Shown here piece by piece: positions 3,507-13,263 of a DNA stretch of 32,000 nucleotides. Source of the stretch: Clostridiales bacterium (GTDB lineage: Bacteria; Bacillota; Clostridia; Oscillospirales; Oscillospiraceae); assembly GCA_021203185.1 (NCBI GenBank), contig JAJQBR010000160.1, forward strand, positions 1,790-33,789, read 5' to 3'. Below the pieces are notes generated by a model. That model did not search any database. It had not been told where the DNA came from and saw only the letters and a list, made by a program, of their open reading frames with translations. Each line of letters opens with the position of its first letter. Positions within the stretch are counted from its first letter, which is position 1. A program made the translations under genes and the position numbers.

Positions 3507-4354
3507 GGTGTTTCCTCCATCCATTCCGTGTCCGCCAGCAGCTTTTCCAACTGCCGCCGGTTTTCTTCCAGTTCTGCCTCTGTCGCCCGGCGCGGAGTTG
3601 CGCACGGCTCCGGCCCGGTGGCTTTTTTGCGGCGGGACGGCACCCGCCTTTGGCTGGCCGCATCAGTCAGCCCGTCTCGCTCCCAGCGCCGCATAATGGC
3701 CTCCAGGTAGCCGAATTTCCGCGCATCGTTGGCTCCGGCCTCGCGGATCAGCCGCTCCACAGTCTCGCTGCCGTAACTTCGATACCAGCCCAGCAGGGTT
3801 TCCCTCGCCCTCGCATTTGGCTCAATGGCGGTTTCCGCCCGCAGCAGAGCGGAAAAATCATCCAAAGCCCTTTCTTCGGCAGCAGCAGCCGCAGCCAGAG
3901 CGCCGGAATCGGCATCACGGTCAGGCTCAGGCTCAGGGCCATGCTCAGGCTCAGGCTCAGTATCAGGTTCAGTATCATTATCAGGCTCAGGCTCATTATC
4001 ATTATCGGGTTTTTTCGCTTTTGTTCGGTTTTCAAAAAAACCATTCGGTTTCTCCGGGTTTTCTGAAAAACCGTTCGGTTTCTTATGTTTGGGCGGTCTG
4101 CCGCCCTTTTTCCCGTTCTCCTGATTCTGACGGCATTTCTCTTTGTACTTTTCCCGATCCCGGTCAAATGTACGGCGGATAAATCGAAACACGGCTCTCA
4201 CGGAGGGATCGTCACCGGCATAGACTTCCCCACGCTTCTGATAGGCGAACATGGCGCGCAGCAGCGCCCCCGCCTGCTCGTCAGTGAAGTCCTCGATGTC
4301 CTCTTCCCAGTCGTAGTAAACAATGAAGCTCTGCTTTACGCCATCCTTCCCCAT
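3503..4354 (-). CDS. Phage replication initiation/replisome organizer protein (DUF6291-like N-domain, acidic EP/DN linker, DnaD-like C-domain)
   Basis: The start MGKDGVKQSFIVYYDWEEDIEDFTDEQAGALLRAMFAYQ matches the recalled DUF6291 pattern. The C-terminal ETLLGWYRSYGSETVERLIREAGANDARKFGYLEAIMRRWERDGL is DnaD-domain-like. Confidence 0.7.
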   Translation of the reverse strand: MGKDGVKQSFIVYYDWEEDIEDFTDEQAGALLRAMFAYQKRGEVYAGDDPSVRAVFRFIRRTFDRDREKYKEKCRQNQENGKKGGRPPKHKKPNGFSENPEKPNGFFENRTKAKKPDNDNEPEPDNDTEPDTEPEPEHGPEPEPDRDADSGALAAAAAAEERALDDFSALLRAETAIEPNARARETLLGWYRSYGSETVERLIREAGANDARKFGYLEAIMRRWERDGLTDAASQRRVPSRRKKATGPEPCATPRRATEAELEENRRQLEKLLADTEWMEETP

Positions 4355-4358
4355 CCGC

Positions 4359-5393
4359 TCACCCGCCCTTCTGACAGACCGTAACCCGCACCTGTGGCGG
4401 CACACAGCGGCGGACGGCCTCGATGAACCAGGCCTCGTCGGAACAGGCGTCCGACAAATGCAGCAGGAAGATTTCCCGGCAGTCCTCCAGCGGCATGGAG
4501 GACAGATAGCCGCACAGCGTTCCAATTTCCATGTGGCTGTTGCGGATTCGGCGCACCACCTGCTCCGGCATCCGGGTTTGGCGGGACAGAATCACGTCCC
4601 AGTAGTTGGCTTCGATGGCCAGCAGGTTCAGGCCGGGGAAGCGGTAACGCAGGTTGGCGGTGTCGGTGGCGAAGGCCAGCCTGTCCCCGTCGGCTCCCAG
4701 CAGCAGGAAGCCAACCGGTTCTCTGGCGTCGTGGAAGGTTCGGAAGGGCAGCACCTTCCAGCTTCCAATGTCCACCGGCGCGCCCACGTCCTGCCCCACC
4801 TCCGGGGCCAGAGGGACGGCACCCTCAGCGCCCAGGGCCTGCATGGTCCCGTGGGACATATACACCGGCACACCCGCCTCCAGCAGCTTGTCCCAGCAGC
4901 GGGAGTGGTCCTTGTGTTCGTGGCTGACCAGGCACCCGGCCAGCCGGGAGACGGAATAACCCGCCCCCCGGACCAGCTGGCTCAACCGCCGGAAGCTGAC
5001 CCCGCACTCGATCAGCAGTACGCTTTCCCCATCGTCCACCAGATAGGCGTTGCCATGGCTGGAGCTGCCCAGCAAAGTATCCGTGTCGAAGGCGGCAAAG
5101 GCGTCGTCGGTGAACGCCGTCCCCGTCCAGCTGCCCAAAAACTTGCGCAGGTTGCCCTTTTTGCTGGCGCTGACCGCAAAGGTGCGGCTCAACTGCCGGG
5201 GCTTCATCTCCCCATCGACTTCAATGGTTTTGGCGGGAATCTCAAAGGTAAACATGATTTGGTTGGCGTAACGGGTTTTGTTCTTAAATTCCGTCTGCTG
5301 CTCCCCCAGCTCGTAGATACCAACGCACACCGCCAGGTAAGTACCAGGCTCCACCGGAGGCGTTTTCGGCTTTACTCTCGTCCCGATTATCAT
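4359..5393 (-). CDS. Fusion protein: DUF669-like (phage SSB-partner-like) N-domain plus MBL-fold metallo-hydrolase C-domain
   Basis: The N-terminal roughly 105 aa (VEPGTYLAVCVGIYELGEQQTEFKNKTRYANQIMFTFEI...) resemble DUF669. From LGSSSHGNAYLVDDGESVLLIECG, with the HxHxDH motif SHEHKDHS, it is MBL fold. Confidence 0.7.
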   Translation of the reverse strand: MIIGTRVKPKTPPVEPGTYLAVCVGIYELGEQQTEFKNKTRYANQIMFTFEIPAKTIEVDGEMKPRQLSRTFAVSASKKGNLRKFLGSWTGTAFTDDAFAAFDTDTLLGSSSHGNAYLVDDGESVLLIECGVSFRRLSQLVRGAGYSVSRLAGCLVSHEHKDHSRCWDKLLEAGVPVYMSHGTMQALGAEGAVPLAPEVGQDVGAPVDIGSWKVLPFRTFHDAREPVGFLLLGADGDRLAFATDTANLRYRFPGLNLLAIEANYWDVILSRQTRMPEQVVRRIRNSHMEIGTLCGYLSSMPLEDCREIFLLHLSDACSDEAWFIEAVRRCVPPQVRVTVCQKGG

Positions 5394-7309
5394 TCCAATA
5401 CCTCCCTCAGTGTCTTATCGCCCTTGCTGGCCACCAGCCGAATGACCTGGGTGTCCACCTCCAACAGGTGGGTCACGCTCTCCGCGTTGTCCACGAACAG
5501 CGGCACCCGGACGCCGTTGGCCCGGCTGAGCACATCAATGACATCCAGCCCGGCGTTGACCTTTTCGCCGCTGTTCAGGTCGCTGTAGGGGACGCCGCCC
5601 ACCGTGGCCCGGCAGCAGTCCACCAGTGCCCCGTTGATTTGGGTATCGAACAGCTTCCACCGCACCCGGCGAAACAGGCTGTTCACCCGCTGGTCGATAT
5701 ATGCGGCCTTCGCCGTGGTGAACTGGTCGCACAGGGCCAGCAGCGCGTCTACGTCCTCCAGCTCTGCCGCCGCTTTTCGGGCGGCCTCGGTCAGCTCCTG
5801 CTGGCGGCTCTGGGCGTTTTGCAGCACCTGTTCCCCGGCCAGCACCCCGTCCATGTCCCGGAGGGTCTGGGACGCCTGAAGAAACCGGTCTCTCGCGGCA
5901 GAGATGGCCCCGGCGCTGTCCTGCCTCACCTGTCGGATCTGCTCTTGCAGCTCTGCCACCTGTTGGGTCAGCTTGTCCTTCTGGGCGGCATAGCCGGGGA
6001 GGTTCGTCACCTCCTGCCCCTCCAGGGCGGTCAGCTGGGCCATCAGGTCGGTTTTCTGTCCGGCGGCCTGCCGCAGTTCTTCCCGCAGGCTGTCCAACCG
6101 TCGGTTGGTTTCCTCCAGGCGCTGTTTGTGTTCGTTGGCTTGACTGATCGCCAGGGCTTTCCGCTGGGCCTGCTCCGTCTGGAACTTCTGGCGGGCTTCC
6201 TCCACCCGCTCCCTCGGAAAAGCCTGCCCACAGGTGGGACAGCGGCCCGGCGTGAACTGTTCTGCCGCCGCCGCTTTCCAGGCGCTCCGGCACTGTTCCA
6301 CCTGTTCCTGCATCCGCGTGATGTCGGATTCCAGATAGCTCTGCTCCTGCGTCAAACGGGCGGTGTTTCGCTCCAGCCGGTCAAGCTCACGCTTGGCTCG
6401 GTCTACTGCGTCGGGGTCTTGTTGCCCGGCCCGGTGCGCATCGTTCTCGGCCTCCAGCTTGTCCAACTGGGCCTGTACTGCGGTCAGCTGGCTTTCCTGC
6501 AATTTGGCGCTGTCGCTGGAGCGCAGGTTGTCCAGTTCCCGCTGGCGGCGGTCCCGCTCCCCGGCCAGTTCCTCCCGCTGCTGCCGGAGGCTGGCAAAGT
6601 CCAGGTCACAGTATTCCGTCACCGTCCGTTTGCACTCGTCCAGCCGGGCGGGAATGGTGTTGCGTTTGGTGTTCAGGGACCGGCGCTGGGCCTGTAATGC
6701 CTTCCGGGTGTCCTCCACGGTGCGGCCCGCCATAGACGCCGCCAGCGGCGCAAACTGGGGATCGCTGTTCAGGATGTCCCCCTCGTCGGCCCCGCCGATC
6801 AGATCGAATAGAGCCGCCCGTCGGCTGTTCTCGTCCATCCCGGCGCAGAACCAGGTCACGTCCGTCAGCGCCCGGAAGGTGGATTCCTCCACCAGCTCGC
6901 CGATGCGCCGGTCATACTCGTTCTTTTTCAGCGGCACCCCGTCCACGAAAAACTCGCTGGAGTTGCCGTCGAAGGACTTCCCCGCCCGGCCCCGCTTCTG
7001 GGTCCAGAGTTCAAAGTAGGTGCGCCGCAGGGTCAGCGGCTGCCCGTCCACCAGCAGAATGGCCTCCACAGAGGTCTCCGCCCCGTGATCCAGCACCTCC
7101 CCGGCCCCGTCCAGGGGCTTGATGTGGAACTTGGTCTGTCCCTTGCTGTCCTTGCCGAACAGCAGCCAGGTCAGCGCGTCGTAGATGGTGGTTTTTCCGG
7201 CGGCGTTCTCGCCGTAGATGCTGCAATTCCGCCCTCCCAGCTCCAGCCGGAGGGAGGGGCAGCCCTTGAAGTTCCGCAGCTCCAGGGTGTCGATGGTGAT
7301 GGTTTTCAT
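5390..7309 (-). CDS. Rad50/SbcC-like SMC-type ATPase with CxxC zinc hook
   Basis: The start MKTITIDTLELRNFKG follows RBS GGAGAAGGAGG. Walker A is GENAAGKTT. A long coiled coil has central CPTC (nt 6230-6241). The C-terminal region is signature/Walker B-like (LFVDNAES). Confidence 0.8.
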   Translation of the reverse strand: MKTITIDTLELRNFKGCPSLRLELGGRNCSIYGENAAGKTTIYDALTWLLFGKDSKGQTKFHIKPLDGAGEVLDHGAETSVEAILLVDGQPLTLRRTYFELWTQKRGRAGKSFDGNSSEFFVDGVPLKKNEYDRRIGELVEESTFRALTDVTWFCAGMDENSRRAALFDLIGGADEGDILNSDPQFAPLAASMAGRTVEDTRKALQAQRRSLNTKRNTIPARLDECKRTVTEYCDLDFASLRQQREELAGERDRRQRELDNLRSSDSAKLQESQLTAVQAQLDKLEAENDAHRAGQQDPDAVDRAKRELDRLERNTARLTQEQSYLESDITRMQEQVEQCRSAWKAAAAEQFTPGRCPTCGQAFPRERVEEARQKFQTEQAQRKALAISQANEHKQRLEETNRRLDSLREELRQAAGQKTDLMAQLTALEGQEVTNLPGYAAQKDKLTQQVAELQEQIRQVRQDSAGAISAARDRFLQASQTLRDMDGVLAGEQVLQNAQSRQQELTEAARKAAAELEDVDALLALCDQFTTAKAAYIDQRVNSLFRRVRWKLFDTQINGALVDCCRATVGGVPYSDLNSGEKVNAGLDVIDVLSRANGVRVPLFVDNAESVTHLLEVDTQVIRLVASKGDKTLREVLE

Positions 7310-10104: not shown

Positions 10105-11166
10105 ATGGGTTTCTTCGATTTTTTCAAGAAAAAGAAAATTCCACCTTCTGAGGCTCCTATCCCAGAGGATGAAAAGAAATTCTATCAGCCGGATTCCTAC
10201 TATACGCAGGGCGCTTTTCAGGGGACGATGTTTGCCCGGCCTGTTGTTACCTTTGAGGAGCGGAAAAAGACGACCTATTCGTCAAAGCGCGGCCTATATC
10301 CTGCTGAGATCATGCTGCTAAAGTATTGCACATATGGAACATACCCTCTTTCCAGCGGCTCCTATCCGGGCCTGTGGTGGTTTCAGTATGGGATTCGGAA
10401 CGTTATTGCAATGTTGAAATCTCTTGAAGAAAGAGGATTCATCTGCTACGCGCCAGCGAAACAGCATATATCCAGATTGAAAGTAGCGCAGTTAAAAGAA
10501 CTTTTGGCGTATTTCAATCTGCCCGTTTCTGGTAAAAAGGCAGATTTGGTGGAACGCTTGCAAAACAACGTTGCAGACGCAGACCTCGAAACTGTCGTAC
10601 CGGACAAGAAGTATATGCTCACCCCATTGGGCGAACAGGAACTTACGGAGAATGAGTATGTGCCGTATATGCACGCCCATAGGCACACAGAAGTTTCTGT
10701 TTATGATTTGAATGTCCTCATTCATAAAAATCCGTCTGTCCCTTTCCGAAAACTTTTATGGGACGAATACACGCGCTTGTGTTTGGAACATTTTCGTGCT
10801 GGTGAAAACGGGTCAGGCCGAAATATAACGCTTGCTATGGCCCGGTTCTTGAAGGAAGAAAGACAACCGGAAGGGGCATTAGGGCTGTTTGCGCAGATAG
10901 TTTATCTCGATTTGAATCGTGAACCGCTTCCATTCGCAGACCCTGACCATGTGCTTGCTCCCGCGATTCTTGATGATATTTCACGTATATCAGAACAGAT
11001 AGGCTGCAAAGGAAACAGGTTAATTGACTATATAGAGTGGTGTTTAGGTAAAATTCGACCTGCTTATAAAAATTATACAGAGACAGAAGCGGCCACCATC
11101 ATTACCATTTATGTATCAGGGCATAAAGACCGCGCTGAACAGATGATAAGGCAAAAATGGCAATAA
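10105..11166 (+). CDS. SAP-domain protein of unknown function (353 aa), co-directional with the repressor
   Basis: A clean ORF in a visibly AT-richer segment. SAP motif LKVAQLKELLAYFNLPVSGKKADLVERLQNNV (about nt 10474-10572). No catalytic motif recognised. Confidence 0.7.
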   Translation: MGFFDFFKKKKIPPSEAPIPEDEKKFYQPDSYYTQGAFQGTMFARPVVTFEERKKTTYSSKRGLYPAEIMLLKYCTYGTYPLSSGSYPGLWWFQYGIRNVIAMLKSLEERGFICYAPAKQHISRLKVAQLKELLAYFNLPVSGKKADLVERLQNNVADADLETVVPDKKYMLTPLGEQELTENEYVPYMHAHRHTEVSVYDLNVLIHKNPSVPFRKLLWDEYTRLCLEHFRAGENGSGRNITLAMARFLKEERQPEGALGLFAQIVYLDLNREPLPFADPDHVLAPAILDDISRISEQIGCKGNRLIDYIEWCLGKIRPAYKNYTETEAATIITIYVSGHKDRAEQMIRQKWQ

Positions 11167-11275
11167 CCGCAACGCCAAACAGCTCAACGCCCAGGGGCTG
11201 CAAAAGCTGGTGGACTACTCAGACGACCTACTGGGCAATCCTGTTTATAAGAAGAAAACGCCGGACGGATTTTCA

Positions 11276-11304
11276 GTATCCGATGGGCGAGACGATAAAA
11301 TGGC
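11276..11304. repeat. 29-bp direct repeat, copy 1 (GTATCCGATGGGCGAGACGATAAAATGGC)
   Basis: Identical 29-mer at 11942-11970. Confidence 0.9.
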
Positions 11305-11337
11305 ATGACTTGAACCGAAAGAGAGAAGGTGCAGCAT

Positions 11338-11724
11338 ATGCCGGAAAACCGGCTGTTCCGGGTAGGGGAATACCTGGAGCGGTATAATGAAATAACCGGT
11401 CAGTCTATCCCGCCCGGCGGCATTTATCAGTCCCCCGGTCTTGTCCGGCATATTGAGAAGCGGCACCCGGAGAACGTGTCACAAATCGACTTGATACCGG
11501 AGATTCTGGCCGCTCCAGATTACATTGGACACAACCCCAAAGAGACGGACAGCGTGGAGCTGGTCAAGGTGTACGGGCAAAATTTGATGGTCTGTGTAAA
11601 GCTGGATCGAAGGAAGGGTTACTTGTTTGTGGCCAGTTTTTTCAGCATCAGCCAGGGAAAGTTGAAAAACCGGCTCAACAGCGGCAGGCTGAAACGTCTG
11701 GAGAAGAAAACAAAAATAGATTGA
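11338..11724 (+). CDS. Barnase-EndoU-ColicinE5/D-RelE (BECR)-fold, PBECR-like putative RNase/toxin (128 aa)
   Basis: The pattern IYQSPGLVRHIEKRHPENVSQIDLIPEILAAPDYIGHNPKETDSVELVKVY...VKLDRRKGYLFVASFFSIS..KLKNRLNSGRL matches the recalled signature of phage/plasmid PBECR domains. Recall only, not searched. Confidence 0.55.
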   Translation: MPENRLFRVGEYLERYNEITGQSIPPGGIYQSPGLVRHIEKRHPENVSQIDLIPEILAAPDYIGHNPKETDSVELVKVYGQNLMVCVKLDRRKGYLFVASFFSISQGKLKNRLNSGRLKRLEKKTKID

Positions 11725-11749
11725 CGCCAGCGACAATGTGTGGTATAAT
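11721..11749 (+). promoter_or_regulatory. Near-consensus sigma-A promoter overlapping the stop codon of the RNase-like gene
   Basis: TTGACG (11721-11726), a 17-nt spacer, then TGgTATAAT (11741-11749). Confidence 0.55.
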
Positions 11750-11755
11750 AAAGCC

Positions 11756-11925
11756 ACTAAAAGCATATGCTTTAATGAGCAGTGAGGTCGGAAAGGCTCC
11801 CGACGCTCCCGGAAACGGGAACCTGAGATGCAGGATACGCCGCCCTGCCATTGCTCAACAGGCCCCTGGCAGTAAGCGCCCCCGCGATATGGGGGAGATC
11901 TGAACCCAGGGGCTTTATTTATACA
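11756..11925 (+). ncRNA. Candidate structured sRNA of about 170 nt, class unknown
   Basis: It lies downstream of the promoter above. Hairpins: AAAGCATATGCTTT (11760-11773), GUCGG/CCGAC, CCCG-GAAA-CGGG, CUGCCA/UGGCAG and CCCCC/GGGGG. GCCCCUGG (11862-11869) pairs with CCAGGGGC (11906-11913), followed by UUUAUUUAU. No ORF has a credible RBS. Confidence 0.35.
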
Positions 11926-11941
11926 CAAAAACCGCCCCGGT

Positions 11942-11970
11942 GTATCCGATGGGCGAGACGATAAAATGGC
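11942..11970. repeat. 29-bp direct repeat, copy 2
   Basis: Identical to 11276-11304, with 666 bp from copy start to copy start. Confidence 0.9.
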
Positions 11971-11972
11971 GT

Positions 11973-12006
11973 AAAAAAAGCCCCCAGCGCCGAAGCACCG
12001 GGGGAG
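11973..12006 (-). terminator. Intrinsic terminator of hicAB
   Basis: On the minus strand: CCCCCGGUGC-UUCG-GCGCUGGGGG followed by UUUUUUU. The two non-Watson-Crick pairs are G.U only in the minus sense. Confidence 0.7.
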
Positions 12007-12019
12007 AGGAAGGGAACTG

Positions 12020-12415
12020 TTACCCGATATTCAGTTTTTCTTTCAGGGCTTCCTGGAGGACGCCGGAGAAGTTGATGCCGTTGCTTTCGGCCAGATCATT
12101 CAGCCAACTGGGGATGGTCAACGTCTTTTTTACGGCCTTGCTGTCATAGAACCGGCGATACCAGTCGGTGTCACAGCCCACCAGCGAGACAAATTCGCCG
12201 CTTTCGTGCTGTACATCGTTCACCCCGGAGGGCGCGGGGATGGTTTCTCCGTCTTTCTCCATCCAGTACAAGGTCAAACACAGGGCGTCCTTCGCCATTT
12301 CGATTCCTTCGTTTACGTCGGCGGCGCTGGTGTAGCAGCTTTCCAGGTCGGGGAAACGGATGCTATATCCCTCTTCTTCCTTCGTGAAAATCGCCGGATA
12401 TGCGTATTTTGCCAT
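12020..12415 (-). CDS. hicB: HicB-family antitoxin
   Basis: 131 aa. MAKYAYPAIFTKEEEGYSIRFPDLESCYTSAADVNEGIEMAKDAL is the typical HicB N-domain. The C-terminal TLTIPSWLNDLAESNGINFSGVLQEALKEKL is RHH-like. Confidence 0.85.
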   Translation of the reverse strand: MAKYAYPAIFTKEEEGYSIRFPDLESCYTSAADVNEGIEMAKDALCLTLYWMEKDGETIPAPSGVNDVQHESGEFVSLVGCDTDWYRRFYDSKAVKKTLTIPSWLNDLAESNGINFSGVLQEALKEKLNIG

Positions 12416-12451
12416 GATAGAACCTCCTATTTAGGGGAGGGAGTTGGGGCT

Positions 12452-12634
12452 TTACAGCCCCGCATCCCGTAGGATTGATTTGAGTGTTCCTTTTGGTATC
12501 TCTTCTGTTTTGTGGCGGCTGACCGGGAAGCGTTTCCCTGTGATGGGACTATACCAAATACAGTGATTTGCACCTTCCCGGAGTATCGTGCAGCCTGCCT
12601 TTTTCAGCTTCTTTTCCAGTTCGCTGTATCGCAT
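12452..12634 (-). CDS. hicA: HicA-family mRNA interferase toxin
   Basis: 60 aa. The sequence MRYSELEKKLKKAGCTILREGANHCIWYSPITGKRFPVSRHKTEEIPKGTLKSILRDAGL is the typical HicA pattern. Confidence 0.85.
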   Translation of the reverse strand: MRYSELEKKLKKAGCTILREGANHCIWYSPITGKRFPVSRHKTEEIPKGTLKSILRDAGL

Positions 12635-12659
12635 TGCCGTCCCTCCTCTTTACGATTCT

Positions 12660-12688
12660 ATTTTACACGTATTTTATACGTATGTCAA
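12660..12688 (-). promoter_or_regulatory. hicAB promoter with a palindromic operator in the spacer
   Basis: On the minus strand: TTGACA (12688..12683), a 17-nt spacer, then TAAAAT (12665..12660). The spacer contains the palindrome ACGTAT-AAA-ATACGT. Confidence 0.65.
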
Positions 12689-12699
12689 GACCTAAACGC

Positions 12700-12735
12700 A
12701 AAAACCTCCCCCGGTGTAACCAGCACCAGAGGAGG
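12700..12735 (-). terminator. Minus-sense intrinsic terminator immediately upstream of the hicAB promoter
   Basis: On the minus strand: CCUCCUCUGGUG-loop-CACCGGGGGAGG followed by UUUUU. The mismatches are G.U only in the minus sense. Confidence 0.55.
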
Positions 12736-12746
12736 CAAAGAGGTGA

Positions 12747-13149
12747 TAAAACAAAGAAACAGACAACGCCGAGCCAAGCCCTGAAAGGGGAAGGTGTAAC
12801 GACTGGACACGGAGCGACCCATCGGGCCGAAGGCACAGTCTGAACTCACAGGCGACTGTGAGAGCCGGGCGGAAACGACCCGACCCCGCTGAAAGGCGGA
12901 GTAACAAATTTGGAAGTCTATTAGAGATATGATCCCTGACACTGTGTCTGGCATTGTTAAGCCCACCAGTATCGCGCAGATGCTGAGTGATTCGTTCGAG
13001 GTGACCGCAAGCATTCCTGAACCCATCTCTGCCACTCTCGGTTCCTTCAACGCCATCAACACTACTTGCGAGGTGAACCATCGCCCTGCCGTGGAGCAAT
13101 CCACGGTCTGCACTCCGTAAATTCGGCGAACCTCTGTTTCTTTGTTTTA
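12747..13149. ncRNA. Candidate large structured non-coding RNA locus (orientation unresolved; ROOL/GOLLD-like class is only a hypothesis)
   Basis: A 17-bp perfect long-range complement joins 12747-12763 to 13133-13149, extended by CGCCGA (12767-12772) / TCGGCG (13123-13128). There are at least six internal hairpins, including three GAAA tetraloops (12783-86, 12872-75, 12891-94). No convincing CDS is present. Confidence 0.4.
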
Positions 13150-13197
13150 CATATAGCATCATCACCGGACGAAGAAGTAGAATCTCCATCTGGTGAT

Positions 13198-13226
13198 ATG
13201 ATACCACATTTGTCCGCATAGCGCAA
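13198..13226 (-). promoter_or_regulatory. Possible minus-strand promoter reading into the structured locus
   Basis: On the minus strand: TTGCGC (13226..13221), a 17-nt spacer, then TGgTATCAT (13206..13198). Confidence 0.4.
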
Positions 13227-13227
13227 G

Positions 13228-13263
13228 AAAAACCGCCCCGGTGCTACCAACACCGAAGCGGTT
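13228..13263 (-). terminator. Minus-sense terminator-like hairpin
   Basis: On the minus strand: AACCGCUUCGGUG-loop-CACCGGGGCGGUU followed by UUUCUU. It shares the AAAAACCGCCCCGGTG arm with 11928-11943. Confidence 0.5.

Follow-up and report, generated by a model that had tools for sequence, protein, structure and literature searches.

The stretch of DNA analyzed in this study (the window) comprises 32,000 nt from a Clostridiales bacterium (GCA_021203185.1, contig JAJQBR010000160.1, positions 1,790-33,789 of the forward strand). Two identical 29-bp direct repeats, at 11276-11304 and 11942-11970, enclose one gene and one RNA gene only, as had been recognized in an original prediction for this locus. 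The gene (11338-11724, plus strand, with AAGGTG just 5' of its ATG) encodes a 128-aa RNase-like protein and candidate toxin of the Pfam family PBECR3 (PF18812), and the RNA has at its core (11777-11856, plus strand) a member of the skipping-rope class (Rfam RF02924). Together, PBECR3 and skipping-rope RNA constitute a conserved two-part accessory module of prophages. The original prediction had proposed a toxin/RNA-antitoxin module; the two-part unit and a genomic logic fitting such a module were borne out by the present analysis, but the antisense mechanism and the role assigned to the repeats were not.

The BECR-fold RNase-like nature of the product, which had been recognized earlier, was supported by Pfam comparison. 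The protein matched PBECR3 with E=6.1e-24 (84.6 bits, cutoff 30), residues 9-111 aligning with profile positions 3-115 of 115, and also matched PBECR2 more weakly (E=1.9e-07). The structure predicted by AF2 from 30 homologues (pLDDT 92.1, pTM 0.86) resembled MuF C-terminal and polyvalent-protein domains in BFVD with probability 1.0 (E 3e-7 to 7e-4, TM 0.6-0.71), and a search of the PDB by sequence returned nothing significant. In the alignment of the 30 homologues (alignment A1), H38, D61, K88, D90, R112 and S115-G116-R117 were invariant, and K41, H43 and S100 were at least 90% conserved; H38 is located in a helix formed by residues 34-42. A full-library profile search yielded 562 cluster representatives at E<=0.001, and the proteins among the matches listed were almost all small (65-236 aa).

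It was Iyer et al. 2017 (PMC5512222) who defined the MuF-C/polyvalent-protein clade, that of the phage BECR (PBECR) RNases, and they proposed that PBECR domains strike RNA-based host defences. The protein in the window resembles these domains in its Pfam match, its predicted MuF-C/polyvalent-type fold and its His and Ser positions, and the invariance of H38 and S115 agrees with the PBECR active-site positions reported in that study, several Ser residues being candidates. It is thus best described as a solo BECR-clade (PBECR3) RNase-like protein with predicted nuclease activity. Unlike the PBECR domains of PMC5512222, which are packaged in the virion as part of polyvalent proteins or MuF fusions, it is a solo 128-aa protein encoded in the lysogeny/accessory-gene region. 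The association with a structured RNA seen here finds no mention in PMC5512222.

The original prediction had called for a covariance-model scan of the candidate RNA but overlooked that the RNA belongs to a catalogued family. In the Rfam scan of the whole window, skipping-rope was the sole non-tRNA match, with 75.5 bits (gathering score 36.7, E=8e-17) over model positions 1-80 of 80; a covariance model of our own scored the core at 91.5 bits. The core consists of a closing stem enclosing three hairpins, the two outer ones being alike, each with a 5-bp stem, a 9-nt loop and GAG before it. It is preceded by a small 5' leader hairpin (AAAGCAUAUGCUUU, 11760-11773, plus strand), similar hairpins with other stems being found in several relatives without being universal, and is followed by an intrinsic terminator (11860-11924, plus strand) formed by a long GC-rich stem (11860-11915) with an inner hairpin and then UUUAUUUAU. 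A terminator directly follows the RNA in most relatives.

The hairpin-rich transcript of about 170 nt, ending in a stem and U-tract, that had been proposed earlier is consistent with these features. Its length, as predicted from promoter and terminator, is again about 170 nt with an end near 11924, and the 175 nt downstream of the promoter fold at -71.4 kcal/mol (z=-4.5). In 45 distinct sequences, aligned by fitting to the covariance model and thus with a bias towards the structure, 96.7% of cells were paired and 18 of the 20 pairs contained compensatory changes; the covariation score was 0.689, compared with 0.20 for shuffled and <=0.11 for slid alignments. The conserved loop nucleotides were invariant, and no guide-like programmable segment was seen. 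The window RNA is therefore a full member of the skipping-rope class, with nothing structurally different.

According to Weinberg et al. 2017 (PMC5737381), the skipping-rope motif is highly conserved, carries a Rho-independent terminator at its 3' side and showed no self-cleavage. The authors see the motif in 'compelling association' with a single protein domain whose gene is close by, count it among the few bacterial RNAs bearing hallmarks of sophisticated biochemical function, and suggest that it perhaps performs 'a biochemically challenging task', with no functional hypothesis offered. The module in the window shares with that description the phage or prophage location, the 3' intrinsic terminator and the one associated nearby protein. 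Beyond this description, the present analysis identified PBECR3 as the partner at these loci, which may or may not be the domain meant in 2017, and found a near-obligate linkage from gene to RNA, a linkage from RNA to gene in about one third of cases, and a dedicated consensus promoter.

The linkage was examined from the gene side in 44 genome and 15 viral loci encoding homologues with 98% down to 25% identity; individual loci are denoted below by L numbers. In all 15 loci tested, Rfam detected a skipping-rope RNA directly 3' of the gene and in the same orientation. A covariance model built from these 15 Rfam-positive loci placed the RNA directly downstream in 57 of the 59 homologue loci, ranging from Oscillospiraceae to Streptococcus, Bacillus and Fusobacterium, with protein identities as low as 25%. 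The first of the two exceptions, L024, lies where the contig ends, and the other, L022 (5001-5370), is the only locus with downstream sequence yet no skipping-rope RNA. A frameshift disrupts the L022 gene in the A-run of the conserved HxKKHHPE motif, and other sequence has taken the place of its 3' flank; decay after loss of the RNA or a homopolymer sequencing error are both possible. The gene is thus practically never found intact without the RNA, which suggests that the protein alone would be harmful or useless.

At one locus (L030), the RNA is encoded on the opposite strand, convergent with the gene and with its own promoter and terminator, and it is therefore a separate transcript rather than a 3' untranslated region. 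The same pair was also found in the Streptococcus suis prophages phiJH1301-1 and phiLP081102, between lysin and att site, with the RNA scoring 80 bits. In L171 (KX077891.1, 2477-2950) and L172 (KX077890.1, 2375-2884), the homologue is annotated as 'spbA protein', the RNA is unannotated, and the pair is the last feature before the att site; a literature search on 'spbA', the name of the S. suis homologue, returned nothing relevant. Some loci carry additional copies. A second, divergent skipping-rope copy directly follows the first in L010 (5418-5642) and L009 (5418-6253), a second paralogous gene-plus-RNA module is present in L019 (5844-6343), and an extra RNA lies downstream of the integrase gene in L003 (6858-6937).

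The absence of an adjacent protein antitoxin, noted for the window in the original prediction, holds for the family: no conserved protein neighbor was found in 39 PBECR3 loci, where helix-turn-helix (HTH) regulators (11 of 39) and integrases (7 of 39) were the most frequent neighbors. The HicAB pair next door to the module in the window is a separate system, described below.

From the RNA side, viral contigs were searched with a sequence pattern for the RNA only, which yielded 108 loci (L061-L168), nearly all of them full-length at 67-97 bits and three of them weak (35-36 bits). Clustering at 90% identity gave 32 clusters, 31 of them assessable. A PBECR3 gene was present in 10 of the 31 clusters, always just upstream of the RNA, and no PBECR3 gene was detected within the locus in the other 21, even with a broadened family profile. 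Such orphan RNAs (e.g., L068, L085, L074, L067, L069, L079 and L127) reached 67-94 bits, apart from a single weak and partial match, and were still structured, with 96.6% of cells paired and a covariation score of 0.54 versus 0.18. Their neighbors were integrases, HTH repressors and assorted phage genes; no common protein partner was found near them. The orphans may be stand-alone decoys or antitoxins, or may have another role.

Promoter predictions distinguished the RNA from the gene. The dedicated sigma-70 promoter of the RNA (TTGACG-17-TGgTATAAT, 11721-11749, plus strand), whose -35 element overlaps the stop codon of the gene as the original prediction had indicated, matches the consensus at 11 of 12 positions. 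For 37 distinct loci carrying both gene and RNA, the 70 nt before the RNA and the 120 nt before the gene were searched for their best sigma-70 match. Upstream of the RNA, the score averaged 11.0 out of 12, with 28 of the 37 loci having a perfect promoter (18 loci) or one at 11/12 (10 loci), at a fixed position some 25-31 nt before the core. Upstream of the gene, the mean was 8.35 versus 7.77 for random windows, i.e., at background level. Because the RNA has a strong promoter and the gene a background-level one, the RNA is predicted to be in large excess over the protein.

The original prediction had also proposed that the 5' palindrome of the RNA pairs with the region around the start codon of the RNase-like gene and blocks its translation, in the manner of a type I toxin-antitoxin system. 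The match does exist in the window, where 9 nt (AGCAUAUGC) can pair between 11333-11341 and 11762-11770 (match AGCATATGC) and where the best duplex (-32.3 kcal/mol) ranks third of 37, but the match is confined to the lineage of the window, and one 9-mer match within 700 nt is roughly what chance would give. Across 39 loci, the longest complement between leader and start region averaged 4.59 nt for cognate and 4.50 nt for mismatched loci, and RNAduplex energies averaged -22.6 kcal/mol for cognate and -22.2 kcal/mol for non-cognate pairs, with a mean cognate rank of 17.8 where 19 was expected. Across relatives, the sequence of the leader hairpin is variable and the hairpin is frequently missing. 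Since cognate pairs performed no better than non-cognate ones, pairing of the RNA with the toxin mRNA was rejected as a conserved feature of the family, and translational control of this type is very improbable.

The most likely mechanism, to which we give about an even chance on the genomic pattern, is that of a type III-like toxin with a protein-binding RNA antitoxin. This is suggested because the gene is practically never intact without the RNA and the RNA is often alone, because the promoters are asymmetric and no protein partner is present, and because the module lies in the lysogeny/accessory-gene region. The abundant skipping-rope RNA would bind the PBECR3 RNase directly and hold it inactive. 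Two alike hairpins with 9-nt loops suggest two protein-binding sites, and each of these hairpins would probably bind one protein molecule. A drop in the supply of RNA, for example when the cell is infected, transcription is shut off or the element is lost, would free the RNase, which could then cut cellular or phage RNA.

The module resembles the known type III systems (ToxIN, CptIN, TenpIN; AvcID) in having a toxin candidate with an endoRNase fold, an adjacent non-coding RNA predicted to exceed the protein, a phage or prophage context, and a toxin gene that is not found intact without the RNA. It differs from them in the fold of the toxin, which is BECR here and ToxN/Kid-like in type III, and in the RNA. 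The type III RNA consists of tandem direct repeats, which the toxin processes, and lies upstream of the toxin gene behind a leaky, ratio-setting terminator, whereas the skipping-rope RNA is a single structured unit, with no tandem array in the window, and lies downstream with its own promoter. A close precedent is provided by the RCd22 RNA of a Clostridioides difficile prophage, which neutralizes the AbiF toxin by direct binding and is formed by two copies of the abiF motif (bioRxiv 10.1101/2025.04.15.648962), a motif from the same 2017 screen as skipping-rope. In both cases a prophage-encoded toxin, here a candidate one, is associated with a structured RNA containing two similar elements; AbiF/RCd22 belongs to another protein family (Abi_2) and another RNA motif (abiF), and the mechanism was experimentally proven for AbiF/RCd22 but is read from sequence for the module described here.

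Several observations weigh against a type III-like mechanism. The single, non-repetitive RNA, located downstream and with its own promoter, is a departure from canonical type III systems. The predicted structure found its best PDB matches in the RelE/HigB/YoeB toxins, and these were weak (E 0.03-0.3, TM 0.3-0.5). Searches of PADLOC, PHROGs and NCBIfam with the 128-aa protein gave zero matches. Most orphan RNAs lack a consensus promoter, some of them may be remnants, and orphans also fit an RNA with a function of its own. Toxicity, RNase activity, direct binding of RNA and protein, and the trigger are all features that we infer.

Two other functions for the pair have to be considered. PBECR3 and the RNA may form a ribonucleoprotein enzyme directed at host or phage RNA, with the RNA serving as cofactor, scaffold or specificity element. 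The near-obligate linkage from gene to RNA, the highly conserved loop nucleotides and complex structure, the 'biochemically challenging task' envisaged in PMC5737381, and the attack of PBECR domains on RNA-based host defences proposed in PMC5512222 are all in line with such an enzyme. It is nevertheless unlikely: two thirds of the RNA clusters have kept the structure without the gene, which is unexpected for an RNA serving only PBECR3, the invariant loops leave no programmable segment to act as a guide, and the combination of a very strong promoter for the RNA with none for the gene is easier to reconcile with an inhibitor made in excess than with a stoichiometric cofactor. Those same gene-less RNAs, widespread near integrases and repressors and retaining covariation, would be accommodated if the RNA were the main product, namely a trans-acting small RNA or decoy for control of lysogeny or superinfection, and PBECR3 merely matured it or turned it over; the RNA's own promoter and terminator also agree with this. 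We consider this processing role still less probable than an enzyme, since the near absence of intact genes without the RNA points to a protein that is harmful or useless alone, the orphans indicate that the RNA does not need PBECR3, and conserved base complementarity between the RNA and an obvious target was not seen, at any rate where the mRNA of the gene itself is concerned.

The repeats that bracket the module were the other central element of the original prediction. Within the window, the 29-mer (GTATCCGATGGGCGAGACGATAAAATGGC) has exactly two copies, with no further one at <=3 mismatches and 0 expected by chance. Both copies encode VSDGRDDKMA*, which is the C-terminus of a small upstream reading frame, X, whose 3' part (11210-11308, plus strand, from translation, start uncertain) ends in this sequence, repeat 1 lying just before the final codons. 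The homologue of X in L002 is a 45-aa open reading frame (ORF; 4278-4415) with another C-terminus, and DNA homology to L002 ends at 11267. In the window (11143-11308), the ATG of the L002 frame is missing or out of frame owing to a 1-nt difference, and X overlaps in another frame the end of a SAP-domain gene (10105-11166); a pseudogene, an alternative start (GTG at about 11210) and a frameshift are all possible.

Comparison with the closest relatives did not uphold the earlier view of the repeats as boundaries of a mobile cassette. L001, the closest, is 95% identical over 11205-11942 and has only repeat 1, with one mismatch. After the cassette, its sequence runs straight into that of 12717 onward, so that 11943-12716 is missing, including repeat 2 (which forms the left end of the HicAB block), the hicB terminator, hicB, hicA and their promoter. 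L002 has neither repeat; homology of its cassette stops at 11942 and resumes at 13228, HicAB and 12717-13227 being missing. An att site of the cassette was accordingly rejected, the relatives having neither the same flanking repeats nor an exact presence or absence of the segment between them, and repeats in the form of terminator modules were ruled out.

A terminator hairpin, J, marks the edges of the variable blocks. The window has an intact copy beside the integrase gene (13228-13265, minus strand), where the cassette of L002 joins, a variant copy at the right edge of the HicAB block (12700-12740, minus strand), and at 11927-11942 the left half only (AAAAACCGCCCCGGTG), which is cut by repeat 2 and recurs as an exact 16-mer at 13228-13243. 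L001 has the complete J hairpin at the position corresponding to 11927-11942. Because repeat 2 halves the J hairpin, this junction is taken as one of illegitimate recombination. The copies of J delimit variable blocks between cassette and integrase, an arrangement resembling a recombination hot spot for module shuffling. A hicB-type terminator (AAAAAA-CCCCCAGCGCCGAAGC..GGGGGAGAGG) lies just upstream of the PBECR3 gene in L002 (4945-4975) and downstream of the cassette in the window (11975-12005), and this shifted position adds to the signs that modules have been reshuffled around terminators common to them.

The repeats are therefore probably the scar of an illegitimate recombination between related prophages and no part of the mechanism of the module. 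One parent would have carried X-cassette-J and the other X-terminator-hicBA-J; one unequal crossover would have given a product that keeps both modules and in which the overlapping 29 nt of X are duplicated. A perfect 29-nt match between parents of 95% identity is not improbable (0.95^29 ~0.23). Neither a HicAB-only relative nor an empty site was found. Exact scans of viral and metagenome contig collections for the 29-mer gave no match and hence no empty site, exact-protein look-ups gave only one 1.65-kb contig, arranged like the window, and the SAP-domain neighbor as query led to one distant locus without an empty site.

Bracketing repeats recur at other loci, which leaves room, though slight, for a dedicated insertion mechanism in which the repeats are the functional ends (att-like, or a target-site duplication) of a mobile gene-plus-RNA cassette. 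The cassette of L003 (4936-5597) lies between perfect 27-nt repeats consisting of the ribosome-binding site and first 11 nt of int, and that of L005 (4907-5581) between perfect 49-nt repeats from the 3' end of an HTH gene, so that three independent loci, including the window, have perfect and locally derived repeats. Imperfect bracketing repeats of about 75-110 nt were present in L018 (~4305-5217) and L036 (~4690-5565), and exact tandem duplications in L009 (4996-6222) and L025 (4813-6712), with periods of 611 and 955 nt. The bracketed units of the window, L003 and L005 have consistent edges: they are 577-637 nt long, start 33-38 nt before the start codon and end past the RNA's terminator, 50-85 nt beyond the RNA core. 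Unrelated loci share homology only in gene and RNA. No close relatives of L003, L005, L018 or L036 were present among the fetched loci.

A mobile cassette with functional ends is nevertheless improbable. Such repeats are lacking in about 30 of the 39 distinct loci, no recombinase gene is part of the cassette, and a conserved att core is ruled out by the unrelated repeat sequences of the different loci. In L001 the cassette occurs with repeat 1 while repeat 2 travels with the HicAB block, the viral and metagenome scans disclosed no empty site, and every case is accounted for by a single crossover, unequal and illegitimate, between two related genomes. Even a perfect repeat around a cassette can thus be a recombination scar and not a functional site.

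A 9-mer within the repeat, ATAAAATGG, had been connected with a possible integrase-related site. It does recur at 14557-14565, and as a single extra match in 64 kb of two strands this occurrence was judged to be at chance level; the integrase-site proposal was rejected. The tandem GGGGTATAAAAT (two copies, 14551-14574), which contains this recurring 9-mer and is located between the integrase stop codon and the 3' end of the tRNA-Ser(gct) gene, may be an arm-type or att-associated site.

The surroundings place the gene-RNA module in the lysogeny/accessory-gene region of a prophage. To the left are replication and recombination genes on the minus strand; to the right follow, in order, hicBA, a tyrosine integrase gene (13319-14542) and two tRNA-Ser genes. 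The tRNA-Ser(gct) gene has its 3' end towards the integrase gene, which places the att site about 2.7 kb from the RNA. The genes hicB (12020-12415) and hicA (12452-12634), both on the minus strand, form a complete type II toxin-antitoxin pair adjoining the module, with a promoter at 12688-12660 and an intrinsic terminator of hicB at 11981-12004, also on the minus strand. HicAB is, like the PBECR3 module, an RNase-type toxin module of the same accessory-gene region, but its antitoxin is a protein, its genes are on the other strand, and neither of the two closest relatives (L001 and L002) has it. The pair is thus a system separate from the PBECR3/RNA module and no part of it.

The RNA family and its association with a nearby protein have been known since 2017, and the working proposed here, with an RNA that inhibits the PBECR3 protein by binding it, would extend the type III-like systems by a new variant. 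We tentatively suggest, with rather less than even confidence, that PBECR3 and skipping-rope represent an unrecognized type III-like family for abortive infection or addiction, in which the toxin has a BECR fold, the antitoxin is a single pseudo-dimeric RNA under a promoter of its own, and the gene-less RNAs are decoys. The hypothesis is concrete and cheap to test, based as it is on an RNase-like gene practically never intact without the RNA, a consensus promoter for the RNA only, and an RNA that is often alone. If it is true, a function would be provided for an RNA class unexplained since 2017, and the RNA-antitoxin systems would gain both a toxin fold and an RNA architecture new to them. The gene-less RNAs would let phages escape the toxin of their hosts or of rival prophages, which would suggest RNA decoys as a form of phage counter-defence in gut Bacillota.

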